A DNA stretch of 3,731 bases from a plasmid: assembly GCF_988243305.1 (NCBI RefSeq), contig NZ_OZ547141.1. One strand, written 5' to 3'. The translations under genes were made by a program, and so were the position numbers. The notes beneath the pieces are model-generated. The model saw only the letters and a program-made list of their open reading frames with translations. It searched no databases and was not told where the DNA came from. Position 1 is the stretch's first letter. Every line of letters starts with the position of its first letter. This document shows positions 628 to 3,152 of the stretch, in pieces.

Positions 628-1185
628 TCACGAGGCCCTTTCGTCTTCAAGAATTTTATAAACCGTGGAGCGGGCAATACTGAGCTGATGAGCAATTTCC
701 GTTGCACCAGTGCCCTTCTGATGAAGCGTCAGCACGACGTTCCTGTCCACGGTACGCCTGCGGCCAAATTTGATTCCTTTCAGCTTTGCTTCCTGTCGGC
801 CCTCATTCGTGCGTTCTAGGATCCTCCGGCGTTCAGCCTGTGCCACAGCCGACAGGATGGTGACCACCATTTGCCCCATATCACCGTCGGTACTGATCCC
901 GTCATCAATGAACCGGACTGCCACGCCCTGAGCGTCAAATTCCTTTATCAGTTGGATCATATCGGCAGTGTCGCGGCCAAGACGGTCGAGCTTCTTAACC
1001 AGAATGACATCACCTTCCTCCACCTTCATCCTCAGCAAATCCAGCCCTTCCCGGTCTGTTGAACTGCCGGATGCCTTATCGGTAAATATACGGTTTGCTT
1101 TCACACCTGCGTCTTTGAGTGCTCTGACCTGAAGATCAAGAGACTGCTGACTGGTTGAGACCCGAGCGTAACCAAAAAGTCGCAT
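628..1185 (-). CDS. tnpR: Tn3-family serine resolvase TnpR (185 aa)
   Basis: ORF-track protein 628..1221 contains [19 protein letters not shown]... with the catalytic Ser10 and a C-terminal helix-turn-helix region, ending KILEDERAS; this matches Tn3 resolvase from memory. Start is set at the internal Met (1183-1185), which gives the canonical 185-aa length and sits 5 bp from res site III. Confidence 0.95.
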
Positions 1186-1190
1186 AAAAA

Positions 1191-1304
1191 TGTACCTTAA
1201 ATCGAATATCGGACAACTCATGTCTATTATTACAAATTTACGATTTAATAGACATATTAATGTAACAGTTTTACGATGTCCGATAATTTATAACATCGTG
1301 GATG
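1191..1304. other. res recombination site of the Tn3 family: site III 1191-1215, site II 1221-1254, site I 1277-1304
   Basis: Half-sites TGTACCTTA/TATCGGACA (site III, 25 bp), TGTCTATTA/TAATAGACA (site II, 34 bp) and TGTCCGATA (site I left half) are visible. The spacings III-5bp-II-22bp-I reproduce the canonical Tn3/gamma-delta res architecture. The right half of site I (1291-1304) does not show the expected half-site pattern. Confidence 0.8.
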
Positions 1305-1332
1305 TGTCAGCTTGTTTTTATGATATGAGAAC

Positions 1333-1361
1333 TTGAGATCCTTTCTATCTCGTCGTAATCT
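1333..1361 (+). promoter_or_regulatory. RNAII (replication primer) promoter: -35 TTGAGA 1333-1338, -10 TAATCT 1356-1361
   Basis: Same hexamers and 17-bp spacing as the pMB1/ColE1 RNAII promoter as I recall it (TTGAGATCC...CGTAATCT); sits immediately upstream of the RNAI-complementary region. Confidence 0.75.
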
Positions 1362-1371
1362 CTTGCTGTGT

Positions 1372-1479
1372 AAACGAAAAAACCGCCTTGCAGGGCGGTT
1401 TTTCGAAGGTTCTCAGAGCTACCAACTCTTTGAGCCGAGGTAACTGGCTTGGAGGAGCGCAGTCACCAAAACTTGTTCT
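1372..1479 (-). ncRNA. RNAI antisense copy-number control RNA (about 105-108 nt)
   Basis: Minus-strand sequence acaagttttggtgactgcgctcctccaagccagttacctcggctcaaagagttggtagctctgagaaccttcgaaaaaccgccctgcaaggcggttttttcgttt closely resembles p15A/ColE1 RNAI and ends in the G/C hairpin plus U-tract terminator. Confidence 0.8.
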
Positions 1480-1482
1480 TTC

Positions 1483-1512
1483 AGTTTAGCCTTAACAGGC
1501 GCATGACTTCAA
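1483..1512 (-). promoter_or_regulatory. RNAI promoter (-10 TAAACT, -35 TTGAAG on the minus strand)
   Basis: Hexamers read directly upstream of the RNAI 5' end; 18-bp spacer; position analogous to the ColE1 RNAI promoter. Confidence 0.55.
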
Positions 1513-1971
1513 GGCTAACTCCTCTAATTCGGTTACCAGTGGCTGCTGCCAGTGGCGATAAGTCGTGTCTTCTCGGTTTGGATTCAAGTCGATAGTTACC
1601 GGATAAGGCGCAGCGGTCGGACTGAACGGGGGGTTCGTGCATACAGTCCAGCTTGGAGCGAACGACCTACACCGGGCCGAGATACCAACAGCGTGAGCTA
1701 TGAGAAAGCGCCACGTTTCCCGAAGGGAGAAAGGCGGACAGGTATCCGGTAAGCGGCAGGGTCGGAACAGGAGAGCGCACGAGGGAGCTTCCAGGGGGAA
1801 ACGCCTGGTATCTTTATAGTCCTGTCGGGTTTCGCCACCTCTGACTTGAGCGTCGGTTTTTGTGATGCTCGTCAGGGGGGCGGAGCCTATGGAAAAACGC
1901 CATCGGCGCGGCCTTTGTCCCTGGCTTCGGCTTTTTGCTCACATGTTCTTTCCGGCGTTATCCCCTGATTC

Positions 1972-1980
1972 TGTGGATAA
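1972..1980 (-). promoter_or_regulatory. DnaA box (TTATCCACA)
   Basis: Exact consensus 9-mer on the minus strand within cggttatccacagaatcag, the same context as the DnaA box downstream of the pMB1 origin as I recall it. Confidence 0.5.
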
Positions 1981-2112
1981 CCGTATTACCGCCTTTGAGT
2001 GAGCTGACACCGCTCGCCGCAGTCGAACGACCGAGCGTAGCGAGTCAGTGAGCGAGGAAGCGGAAGAGCGCCTTATGTGACATTTTCTCCTTACGCTCCT
2101 CTATGCCGTTCT

Positions 2113-2129
2113 GCATCCTGTCCGGATGC
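2113..2129 (-). terminator. Short hairpin (6-bp stem GCATCC/GGATGC, 5-nt loop) directly after the rom stop codon; possible weak terminator
   Basis: Inverted repeat read directly from the sequence; no U-tract follows on the rom strand, so intrinsic-terminator function is doubtful. Confidence 0.3.
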
Positions 2130-2130
2130 G

Positions 2131-2325
2131 TTATATCCCGGTAAGATTTTCCGCTTCAAAGCGTGTCTGTATGCTGTTCTGAAGTTCTTCCGCGAGTTCG
2201 TGCAGCTTCTCACACATGGCGGCCTGTTCGTCAGCATCAAGTGCGTCCAGTTTTTCGAGCAGCGTCAGGCTCTGGCTTTTTATGAATCCTGCCATGTTGA
2301 GTACGGTTTGCTGCTGCTTGTTCAT
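2131..2325 (-). CDS. rom: Rom/Rop RNA one modulator protein (64 aa)
   Basis: ORF-track protein MNKQQQTVLNMAGFIKSQSLTLLEKLDALDADEQAAMCEKLHELAEELQNSIQTRFEAENLTGI aligns closely with ColE1 Rop (MTKQEKTALNMARFIRSQTLTLLEKLNELDADEQADICESLHDHADELYRS...); it is oriented toward the origin as in ColE1. Confidence 0.9.
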   Translation of the reverse strand: MNKQQQTVLNMAGFIKSQSLTLLEKLDALDADEQAAMCEKLHELAEELQNSIQTRFEAENLTGI

Positions 2326-2413
2326 CTTTCTGTTTTCTCCGTTCTTTCTGTCATCTGCGTTGTGTGATTATATCGCGTACCACTTTTCGACTGTTTTACC
2401 GTCGGTATTCTGC

Positions 2414-2447
2414 TGTCTGACTCTTTGACGGGCATTTCTGTCAGACA
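2414..2447. repeat. Inverted repeat, 8-bp arms TGTCTGAC / GTCAGACA with 18-bp spacer, in the rom-mobC intergenic region (function unassigned)
   Basis: Read directly from the sequence (arms 2414-2421 and 2440-2447). Confidence 0.8.
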
Positions 2448-2515
2448 ACACTGTCACTGCCAAAAAACTGCCGTGCCTTTGTCGGTAATTCGAGCTTGCT
2501 GACAGGACAGGATGT

Positions 2516-2557
2516 GCAATTGTTATACCGCGCATACATGCACGCTATTACAATTGC
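2516..2557. repeat. Inverted repeat, 12-bp arms GCAATTGTTATA / TATTACAATTGC (11/12 complementary) with 18-bp spacer, about 50 bp upstream of the mobC-like start; candidate operator or promoter element
   Basis: Read directly from the sequence; an adjacent short palindrome GCCCTG-gt-CAGGGC lies at 2556-2569. Confidence 0.75.
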
Positions 2558-2608
2558 CCTGGTCAGGGCTTTGCCCCGACACCCATGTCAGATACGGAGC
2601 CATGTTTT

Positions 2609-2932
2609 ATGACAAAACGAAGTGGAAGTAATACGCGCAGGCGGGCTATCAGTCGCCCTGTTCGTCTGACGGCAGAAGAAGACCAGGAAATCAGAAAAAG
2701 GGCTGCTGAATGCGGCAAGACCGTTTCCGGTTTTTTACGGGCGGCAGCTCTCGGTAAGAAAGTTAACTCACTGACTGATGATCGGGTACTGAAAGAAGTT
2801 ATGAGACTGGGGGCGTTACAGAAAAAACTCTTTATCGACGGCAAGCGTGTCGGGGACAGGGAGTATGCGGAGGTGCTGATCGCTATTACGGAGTATCACC
2901 GTGCCCTGTTATCCAGGCTTATGGCAGATTAG
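2609..2932 (+). CDS. mobC: MobC/MbeC-like relaxosome accessory protein with N-terminal ribbon-helix-helix DNA-binding fold (107 aa); family assignment is from recollection, not a search
   Basis: ORF-track protein 2585..2932; preferred start is the second ATG at 2609, which has a GGAG 9 nt upstream (2596-2599). After a basic N-terminal tail (TKRSGSNTRRRAISRP), the segment VRLTAEEDQEIRKRAAECGKTVSGFLRAAAL has the strand-helix-helix pattern of RHH proteins. Context is a ColE1-family replicon next to rom. Confidence 0.6.
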   Translation: MTKRSGSNTRRRAISRPVRLTAEEDQEIRKRAAECGKTVSGFLRAAALGKKVNSLTDDRVLKEVMRLGALQKKLFIDGKRVGDREYAEVLIAITEYHRALLSRLMAD

Positions 2933-3008
2933 CTTCCAGGGGAGAAAACTGTCGAAAACAGACGGTATGAACACTGTAAGCTCCCAAAGTGATCACCACT
3001 CGCTTTCA

Positions 3009-3022
3009 TGCATAGCTATGCA
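3009..3022. promoter_or_regulatory. Perfect 14-bp palindrome TGCATAGCTATGCA; ArgR-box-like element of the cer accessory region
   Basis: Palindrome read directly; resembles the ArgR box half-sites TGAAT/ATTCA with one mismatch each; centred about 108 bp upstream of the XerC arm. Confidence 0.45.
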
Positions 3023-3096
3023 GCGAGCTGAAAACGATCCTGACGCATTTCCCCGGTTTTCTTAGGGTAAAACATCTCTTTTTGCAGTGTCTGTGT

Positions 3097-3121
3097 CAGA
3101 ATCGCGCTCAGCGCGATTCTG
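3097..3121. repeat. Perfect hairpin: 11-bp arms CAGAATCGCGC / GCGCGATTCTG with 3-nt loop, abutting the XerC arm
   Basis: Read directly from the sequence; no flanking T-tract on either strand, so not a canonical intrinsic terminator. Confidence 0.85.
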
Positions 3122-3122
3122 T

Positions 3123-3152
3123 GGTGCGTACAATTAAGGGATTATGGTAAAT
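3123..3152. other. XerC/XerD core recombination site: XerC arm GGTGCGTACAA 3123-3133, central region TTAAGGGA 3134-3141, XerD arm TTATGGTAAAT 3142-3152
   Basis: Matches the ColE1 cer core GGTGCGTACAA-TTAAGGGA-TTATGGTAAAT from memory, with the 8-bp central region typical of cer-type rather than dif-type sites. Confidence 0.8.

Follow-up and report, generated by a model that had tools for sequence, protein, structure and literature searches.

Introduction

Plasmid pJHCMW1 of K. pneumoniae is a small ColE1-type Klebsiella plasmid on which a Tn3-type tnpR-res lies together with a cer-like, ArgR/PepA-dependent Xer site (mwr). Whether resolvase or Xer recombination maintains its monomers was tested experimentally (Tolmasky et al. 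2000; PMC2699498); the competition of the two for stability was dissected there, and the plasmid is reported to be stabilised by resolvase and not by Xer. pJHCMW1 has a complete transposon with its res and a weak Xer site, with a poor ARG box and osmolarity dependence. The core and the accessory sequences of cer have been defined (PMC2699498), the latter as some 180 bp flanking the XerC arm that include an ARG box and regions for PepA binding.

In Tn3 and gamma-delta, a 114-bp res adjoins tnpR, with site III proximal to the gene and a central AT in site I, as laid out in PMC7157771 and PMC2602789. Crossover takes place at this AT (PMC7157771). Hybrid res sites that arose when different Tn3-family transposons recombined at site I are found in Tn1/Tn2/Tn3 hybrids, Tn5501.12 and TnTsp1, where the AT of this site marks the point at which homology ends (PMC7157771; PMC4611040). 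TEM-1, the Tn2/Tn3 resolvase-res, the ColE1 origin and cer are textbook elements, and their joint occurrence is already known. Here we describe a plasmid in which they occur together and in which site I of res is a recombinant joint.

Results

We analysed a 3,731-bp stretch of plasmid DNA, referred to below as the window. Its 3,731 bases all match the circular K. oxytoca record NZ_CP138772.1, so that the small (3.7-kb) replicon of the initial annotation is a complete ColE1-type plasmid. RNAI of the ColE1-type origin was found at 1374-1474 on the minus strand (Rfam RF00106, 94.6 bits, E 1.2e-17) and Rop is also encoded (Pfam, 1.5e-32), giving the antisense copy control plus Rop of a ColE1-type replicon. 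blaTEM-1 lies on the minus strand; its 3' part occupies 3316-3731 and the gene runs over the window origin to 445. The joined translation is full TEM-1, the name also given in the annotation of the identical record. The window is a minimal ColE1-type ampicillin-resistance plasmid.

The tnpR gene (628-1185, minus strand) encodes a full-length serine resolvase of the Tn2/Tn3 type (185 aa), with an N-terminal catalytic domain (Pfam Resolvase, PF00239, 4.1e-41) and a C-terminal HTH (HTH_7, PF02796, 5.8e-12). It is identical at 182 of 185 residues (98%) to Tn3 resolvase (PDB 5cy1) and to TnpR of Tn1331, the resolvase of pJHCMW1. The three substitutions (I3L, I18L, I20V) are each conservative, and Ser10 of the catalytic domain is retained. 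In NZ_CP138772.1 the product is annotated as WP_001235713.1. We use the label "Tn2-type" because this res variant predominates (by BLAST, 3,382 of 4,728 plasmid records and 1,217 of 1,526 E. coli records match it with 99% identity or more) and because Tn2 is reported as the commonest of the variants (Partridge; PMC4611040). The right terminal inverted repeat (IR) of the Tn2/Tn3-type transposon (38 bp, 3169-3206, plus strand) is the sole one remaining: the exact 38-mer forms inverted pairs in complete Tn3 copies (L127 and L006), and neither a second copy nor tnpA was found in the window. With a single IR and no tnpA, the segment is an immobile remnant and not a transposon, and it has no cointegrate to resolve.

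The res region spans 114 bp, consisting of site III (25 bp), a 5-bp spacer, site II (34 bp), a 22-bp spacer and site I (28 bp). It aligns to the Tn1331/Tn3 res without indels, with site III proximal to tnpR and the spacing of Tn3. Site III (1191-1215) is identical to the native res of pSCU-105-2 and, like site II (1221-1254), has two native half-sites. The position of site I (1277-1304) comprises a native left half (I-L, 1277-1289), the crossover dinucleotide AT (1290-1291, 13 bp from the outer end of I-L) and a right half (I-R, 1292-1304) that is mostly foreign. In all matches to native res, identity stops at 1296. A three-way alignment showed that the right half shares AACAT with native res and then continues as retron-plasmid sequence; from the crossover on, the foreign part of site I corresponds to the 3' end of the retron effector gene of the parental plasmid described below. 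Native sequence is preserved throughout the 12 bp at the centre of site I.

We ran a half-site matrix across the whole window. The five retained half-sites were the top five matches, scoring 12.7 and 14.1 bits (site III), 11.5 and 14.2 bits (site II) and 15.4 bits (I-L), and the next best match in the window reached 9.8 bits. The right half at 1292-1304 (inward reading CATCCACGATGTT) scored at background, between -0.7 and -3 bits, and did not exceed 0.1 bits at any offset. This is about 6 bits under the native I-R and at least 12 bits under the other half-sites, and the G at position 2 that is common to all 12 reference half-sites is missing. The matrix scan detected no shifted or alternative I-R half-site within 1296-1325. 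The native I-R is itself weak, falling in the top 1.5-5% of background by leave-one-out scoring, and relies on cooperative binding. Judged from the sequence, the arrangement of res and the cer site described below are not due to chance. An intact tnpR and a three-subsite res beside cer, as initially annotated, are all physically present, but site I does not have a pair of inverted half-sites and res holds five half-sites out of six. The suggestion that site I might be a hybrid was borne out, and the accompanying caveat that res may be non-functional is well founded, its right half-site having been replaced by unrelated DNA.

Other truncations of site I were sought in several collections. The 17-nt pattern ATGTCYGATAATTTATB gave 120 loci in the genome_contigs scan, none with adjoining res sequence; the pattern was too short, and AT-rich genomes matched it by chance. 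BLAST of native res against PLSDB gave 83 of 4,728 records with less than 80% coverage. A longer pattern run on metagenome_contigs yielded one genuine hit, contig L128, which is a res x res hybrid with a Tn2-type I-L fused at the AT to GATATATCAGACA. In res hybrids of this kind the partner is itself a true res and supplies a well-matching I-R (TGTCTGATA in L128), whereas the partner in the window is a gene end without res features. The phrase "resolvase-mediated deletion" had no match in the set of papers searched.

The source of the foreign sequence was found in two E. coli plasmids, pSCU-105-2 and p11_MLI105. The whole window is 100% identical to sequence within both, in which it forms a contiguous 3,731-bp segment with one copy of TATAACAT at each end. 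Circularising positions 5001-8731 of pSCU-105-2 (L003), or the equivalent segment of L004, yields the window base for base, and the two are parent and product. The backbone (1289-3168) differs at 4 of 1,880 positions (99.8% identity) from the 4.05-kb ColE1-like retron-Se72 plasmids (e.g. NZ_CP066843.1). These share the origin, rop, the nikA-like gene and cer with the window; they contain the retron, have no transposon and are uninterrupted at the point of transposon insertion beside cer; the window, in contrast, has lost the retron and gained bla-tnpR-res. The uninterrupted ggTATAACATcg arrangement in 20 other retron-plasmid records fixes the ancestral state.

The parent was a pSCU-105-2-like plasmid, made up of a retron-Se72 ColE1 plasmid with a Tn2-type transposon beside cer and, in addition, an mph(A) module with IS6100/IS26. 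One deletion, running from the point of crossover in the middle of site I to a similar 8-bp sequence, TATAACAT, where the retron effector gene has its stop codon, gave rise to the plasmid. The retron was lost in this event along with the macrolide module and what remained of tnpA. Of res, sites II and III were spared but only the left half of site I; bla and tnpR were kept, and cer was untouched. The junction (1289-1296) is the 8 bp common to res site I and the 3' end of the parental retron effector. We also considered an origin from two transposon copies, one at cer and one at a TATAA site as in pUSDA5905_5, resolved by res x res recombination. This was rejected, as tnpA and the left IR would then persist in the product, and the deletion from site I to TATAACAT would be required all the same.

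The deletable arc of 6,677 bp contains 379 direct-repeat pairs of at least 8 bp. Only one of the 379 spans the central AT of site I, and this placement over the crossover dinucleotide suggests an involvement of resolvase in the event. The junction pair belongs to the shortest class, with copies about 6 kb apart, and 106 of the 379 pairs are longer. These features also count against a RecA-independent microhomology deletion, in which slippage or illegitimate joining between the 8-bp repeats would have hit site I by coincidence and without resolvase. Such an origin is in keeping with the 8 bp of perfect identity at the junction, where resolvase needs 2 bp, and with the nature of the partner site, which has no resolvase half-site on either side (its left half falls in the top 5-29% of background) and lacks the accessory sites that wild-type resolvase normally requires. 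We regard it as unlikely. Within the arc, no sequence matches the middle of site I (12 and 16 bp) better than the partner does; this rank depends on the 8-bp identity and so does not discriminate between resolvase and microhomology. We infer, at about even odds, that wild-type Tn2/Tn3 resolvase catalysed or initiated the deletion by acting in nature on a complete res together with a non-res partner whose only shared sequence is the central 8 bp of site I. An intermediate model, in which a break made or stalled by resolvase at site I was repaired via the best local microhomology, fits both the position of the junction and its identity.

A search of 72,556 plasmid records found the window-type junction once, a search of 5,426 complete E. 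coli genomes did not find it, and its pattern had no match in the viral_contigs scan. It is therefore a singleton, and because the plasmid is known from a single record its persistence is uninformative. This rarity, together with the lack of any parental retron plasmid from Klebsiella among the database records, is in keeping with a view of the 3,731-bp circle as an error of assembly, or as a short-lived excision product of one K. oxytoca isolate that is not stably inherited. However, an 8-bp repeat is far too short for an assembler error, the circle holds a complete origin, copy control, cer and a selectable bla, and an artefact would not be expected to land on the crossover of site I, so that we consider this explanation very improbable.

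The cer core (3123-3152, plus strand, 30 bp) is identical at 30 of 30 positions to the ColE1 core (NC_001371, 3909-3938), including the 8-bp central region. By analogy with ColE1 cer we take its parts to be the XerC arm (3123-3133), the central 8 bp (3134-3141) and the XerD arm (3142-3152). Alignment with ColE1 cer placed putative accessory sequences of about 180 bp next to the XerC arm, at 2940-3122 (the left limit is approximate). Within them are an ARG-box-like palindrome, TGCATAGCTATGCA (3009-3022), located 114 bp upstream of the core compared with 113 bp in ColE1, and a 23-bp palindrome (3098-3120). Outside a few conserved blocks the accessory region shows only moderate similarity to that of ColE1. 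A further difference from ColE1 is the transposon end, which follows the XerD arm after 16 bp and thus faces away from the accessory sequences. As far as can be read from its bases, the cer site appears fully canonical. In the approximately 20 parental retron plasmids cer is the sole resolution function, and a sister derivative, CP034256.1, has lost tnpR-res to IS6100 and kept cer. On this backbone tnpR-res is thus dispensable.

Discussion

The initial annotation had proposed two independent multimer-resolution systems on this replicon. Both are present; their independence is not established, because I-R is foreign and active catalytic subunits are required at both halves of site I (PMC9943657), and res is itself the joint that recombination left in the deletion. 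Asking which of the two keeps the plasmid monomeric is not new, as this has already been answered by experiment for pJHCMW1.

We infer that host XerC/XerD, acting with ArgR and PepA at cer, most likely resolve dimers of this plasmid, by analogy with its retron-plasmid relatives. TnpR is probably still produced and would bind the five remaining half-sites and repress its own promoter; candidate promoter elements directed towards tnpR, identified as consensus matches only, are located in site II and I-L, and the hybrid sequence upstream of the gene includes a promoter-like element formed by the fusion, CTGACA-16-AATTAT. The scarred site I is expected to support little or no strand exchange, since it offers the second catalytic subunit no recognisable binding motif. 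The tnpR-res segment would accordingly be a self-regulating remnant, probably impaired in recombination. We hold the account as a whole, namely a minimal plasmid formed by deletion at site I, resolved by cer/XerCD and carrying an impaired tnpR-res remnant, to be somewhat better than an even bet.

A less probable, though still plausible, alternative is that both systems work and are redundant, with TnpR recombining the hybrid res after the subunit for the missing half has been recruited cooperatively by the I-L subunit and the synaptosome at sites II and III. tnpR is intact with its Ser10, and native sequence is kept at sites II and III, at I-L and over the 12 bp in the middle of site I. As the native I-R is already a poor match, these features mean that the hybrid might still recombine usefully. 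Moreover, if wild-type resolvase once used a non-res partner, two hybrid res sites should be better substrates. Published work points in both directions: a single non-cognate half-site can be tolerated with some activity, which is credited to cooperative binding, or can almost wholly stop productive binding, and the I-R subunit occupies one of the two positions most sensitive for the regulatory interface (PMC9943657). The I-R of the window, at background, about 6 bits below an already weak native site and without the G at position 2, argues against redundancy. The resolvase-driven stability reported for pJHCMW1 is a precedent for it. However, the window differs from pJHCMW1 in having a ColE1-identical Xer core and a damaged res (no I-R, no tnpA and no left IR). 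The opposite outcome in pJHCMW1 can be ascribed to its weak Xer site and intact res, and we continue to favour cer/XerCD as the keeper of monomers.

What the window adds is a base-exact parent-product pair, in which a 9.7-kb multiresistance plasmid was reduced to a 3.7-kb bla plasmid by one deletion at the res crossover. The product carries a natural res short of one half-site, at the most sensitive position, and is a substrate for probing the tolerance of the synaptosome; it is equally suited to asking whether wild-type resolvase uses non-res partners in vivo. For surveillance, an annotated "recombinase" beside bla does not equal a working resolution system. If the deletion was indeed made by resolvase, res would give rise to "illegitimate" site-specific deletions and thereby help to shape small resistance plasmids, beyond the known res x res hybrids, and the five-half-site res scar could be searched for systematically.

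Layout of the plasmid and its tnpR gene

We found that the window is a complete circular plasmid, and Klebsiella oxytoca strain 45 plasmid unnamed5 (NZ_CP138772.1, 3,731 bp, circular) was identical to it over its full length. Every part comes from a known family and the plasmid is already in GenBank. The blaTEM-1 gene spans the window origin (3316-3731 joined to 1-445, minus strand) and its translation is full TEM-1. It is accompanied by tnpR (628-1185, minus strand), a res region (1191-1304), a ColE1-type origin with RNAI at 1374-1474 (minus strand; Rfam, 94.6 bits), rop (2131-2325, minus strand; Pfam Rop), a NikA/MbeC-like gene annotated as mobA (2609-2932, plus strand; Pfam), a cer site ending at 3152 and one copy of a 38-bp Tn3-type terminal inverted repeat (3169-3206). 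The product of the annotated mobA is 107 aa long and is a relaxosome accessory protein resembling NikA/MbeC (Pfam PF21983); a relaxase gene is absent from the window, yet the PLSDB type of the plasmid is 'mobilizable, MOBF'.

The initial annotation had described tnpR as intact, and this was borne out. TnpR is 185 aa long, contains the Pfam Resolvase and HTH_7 domains, keeps Ser10 and is identical at 182 of 185 positions to both the crystallised Tn3 resolvase and Tn1331 TnpR (changes I3L, I18L and I20V only). A mechanically called ORF (628-1221, minus strand) adds 12 codons upstream of the canonical start and begins at an ATG within res site II; the annotated start, shared by homologues, is at 1185.

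Site I of res is a hybrid

In res, sites III, II and I are 25, 34 and 28 bp long with intervening spacers of 5 and 22 bp (114 bp in all). This is exactly the Tn3 arrangement, and the region could be aligned to the Tn1331 res without gaps. A half-site position weight matrix was built from 12 half-sites of this transposon type and Tn3 and used to scan both strands of the whole window. The top five matches (11.5-15.4 bits) were the paired half-sites of sites III and II together with the left half of site I (I-L), while the next-best match anywhere in the window scored 9.8 bits; the five are far beyond chance. The right half (I-R) was not found, with at most 0.1 bits at its position and at all offsets to 20 bp beyond. 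Read from outside, the window has CATCCACGATGTT there, which came no higher than the top 6-14% when compared with random 9- to 12-mers of the parental plasmid; native I-R, CGTACGAAATGTT, reached the top 1.5-5% even after its removal from the matrix. The earlier description of a res with three subsites thus holds for the layout and five half-sites but not for the sixth, and the suspicion of a hybrid site I was correct: I-L is native and I-R scores at background.

The plasmid is the product of a single deletion

Window positions 1289-3168 matched, with just 4 differences in 1,880 positions, a family of ColE1-like retron plasmids of ~4.05 kb, which carry a reverse transcriptase and a Se72-family effector and no transposon (22 PLSDB records, mostly Escherichia). 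The differences lie at 2143-2144, 2556 and 3109; the adjacent changes at 2143-2144 are within rop, whose protein accession differs from that of the retron plasmids. The entire window was found at 100% in two larger E. coli plasmids, pSCU-105-2 (9.7 kb) and p11_MLI105 (11.8 kb). Both have, in order, the retron effector, ori, rop, mobA, cer, IRR, bla, tnpR, res, a short remnant of tnpA truncated by IS6100, an mph(A) module and IS26.

Site I is native in these two plasmids (TGTCCGATAATTT-AT-AACATTTCGTACG), the effector gene ends in ...caaaaggt-AT-aacatcgtggatg, and the window reads TGTCCGATAATTT-AT-AACATcgtggatg. Native site I and the effector gene end have 8 bp in common, TATAACAT, including the central AT at which resolvase exchanges strands (PMC7157771; PMC9943657). 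When the 3,731-bp segment between the TATAACAT copies of either plasmid was circularised, it gave the window exactly. The window is therefore the origin-bearing product of one deletion, in which the tnpA stub, IS6100, mph(A), IS26 and the retron were lost. The hybrid junction was present in one of 72,556 plasmid records and was not found among 5,426 complete E. coli genomes; the plasmid is a recent, singly sampled deletion derivative with no sign of selection.

In an independent retron plasmid, pUSDA5905_5 (NZ_CP039839.1, 206-250 and 4395-4440), a Tn3-type transposon is flanked by a 5-bp TATAA duplication (ggTATAA/IRR ... IRL/TATAAcatcg). This target is the pentanucleotide of the deletion endpoint (window 1289-1293), so the spot at the effector stop codon has been hit twice by transposon-related events; its AT-rich character is the only feature we can offer for this.

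The cer site

The presence of cer, also noted initially, was confirmed. Its 30-bp core (3123-3152), GGTGCGTACAA-TTAAGGGA-TTATGGTAAAT, is that of ColE1 (NC_001371 3909-3938), the 180 bp upstream can be aligned to the ColE1 accessory region with conserved blocks, and the distance from the core to an ARG-box-like palindrome, TGCATAGCTATGCA, is 114 bp, compared with 113 bp in ColE1. By the published definition (PMC2699498) a plasmid Xer site has two 11-bp arms, a central region of 6-8 bp and accessory sequences of ~180 bp that include an ARG box, and the window site appears to fit. Judged by sequence, it would be a canonical ColE1-type Xer site. The transposon ends 16 bp beyond the XerD arm, across the core from the accessory sequences, at a position where the retron plasmid is uninterrupted. 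Position 3109, the centre base of a 23-bp palindrome just upstream of the XerC arm, is C in the window and G in the retron plasmid and ColE1. An 8,002-bp E. coli record (CP148311.1) contains the retron-plasmid segment twice, about 2x the 4-kb unit; it could represent either a cer-bearing plasmid in head-to-tail dimer form or a duplication of such a plasmid introduced by long-read assembly.

Resolution would probably proceed through cer

The initial annotation supposed that resolvase/res can act in plasmid dimer resolution, and the use of Tn3-family resolution systems by plasmids is indeed an established idea; small mobilisable plasmids normally use XerCD with ArgR and PepA at cer-type sites (PMC6312765). 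Co-occurrence of resolvase/res and an Xer site on one plasmid is likewise already known. The nearest counterpart is pJHCMW1: this small Klebsiella plasmid of ColE1 type bears Tn1331, which derives from Tn3, as well as mwr, a cer-like site. According to Tolmasky et al. (2000), pJHCMW1 is reportedly stabilised by resolvase and not by Xer. This is because mwr resolves poorly in ordinary broth (PMC2699498). The window shows the reverse arrangement: its Xer core is canonical and its res is damaged.

The parental retron plasmids have cer as their sole resolution function. In a sister derivative (CP034256.1, locus 4528-6303) IS6100, which directly follows bla, has removed tnpR and res; cer is the only resolution function left, and it matches the window at 100%, as do ori, rop and the nikA-like gene. 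This suggests that tnpR-res is dispensable on this backbone.

TnpR should still bind the five remaining half-sites. Resolvase represses the tnpR and tnpA promoters of Tn3, both of which are located in res (PMC7157771). Consensus-level candidate promoters toward tnpR were located entirely inside the retained transposon DNA, and one new candidate crosses the junction (1283-1310, minus strand; 9/12 consensus matches), a promoter-like pair whose -35 element, CTGACA, derives from retron-plasmid DNA and whose -10 element, AATTAT, derives from I-L, with 16 bp between them. Recombination at the hybrid site is doubtful, since half-site targeting showed that a catalytically active subunit is needed at each half of site I, and the I-R subunit is one of the two positions most sensitive for the regulatory interface (PMC9943657). 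In the same work one non-cognate half-site was sometimes bypassed via cooperative binding and sometimes nearly abolished productive binding, so sequence cannot decide the activity of the hybrid res. We consider it reasonably probable that dimers would be resolved via cer with res strongly impaired, and rather unlikely that both systems work.

Possible involvement of resolvase in the deletion

The arc of pSCU-105-2 that could be lost without loss of bla or the origin is 6,677 bp long and contains 379 direct-repeat pairs of at least 8 bp, 106 of them longer than 8 bp. Only one pair spans the site I crossover dinucleotide and it was the pair used, which argues that the deletion position was not accidental; the rival, a deletion mediated by microhomology alone, seems improbable to us. 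A standard resolvase reaction is disfavoured, because the partner has no resolvase half-site on either flank and no accessory sites, and the 8-bp identity at the junction exceeds the 2 bp needed by resolvase. No other sequence in the arc matches the central 12 and 16 bp of site I as well as the partner does, but this rank follows from the 8-bp identity and therefore does not discriminate between models. We slightly favour involvement of resolvase, bound or cutting at site I, with the outcome steered by local identity.

Recombination between genuine res sites is known to give hybrids that break at site I (PMC7157771; PMC4611040). The one informative match of a metagenome scan (ERZ772969 NODE-3911, 1-420) is of this usual kind: at the same AT, I-L of Tn2 type gives way to GATATATCAGACA, which is a good half-site belonging to the res of another Tn3-family element. 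An IS26 end truncates the Tn2-type tnpR of this contig, and an inverted repeat of the Tn3 family, GGGGTCTGAAGTCCAATGGAACGAAAACGTACG..., lies ~20 bp past the GATATATCAGACA half-site; the arrangement is a res x res hybrid whose res adjoins an IR, and may be a miniature element. No description of a res joined at the crossover point to non-res DNA was found in open-access full text. A natural res-by-non-res deletion by wild-type resolvase is a possible reading of the window junction, to which we give about even weight; if true, specialists in site-specific recombination would find it moderately interesting.
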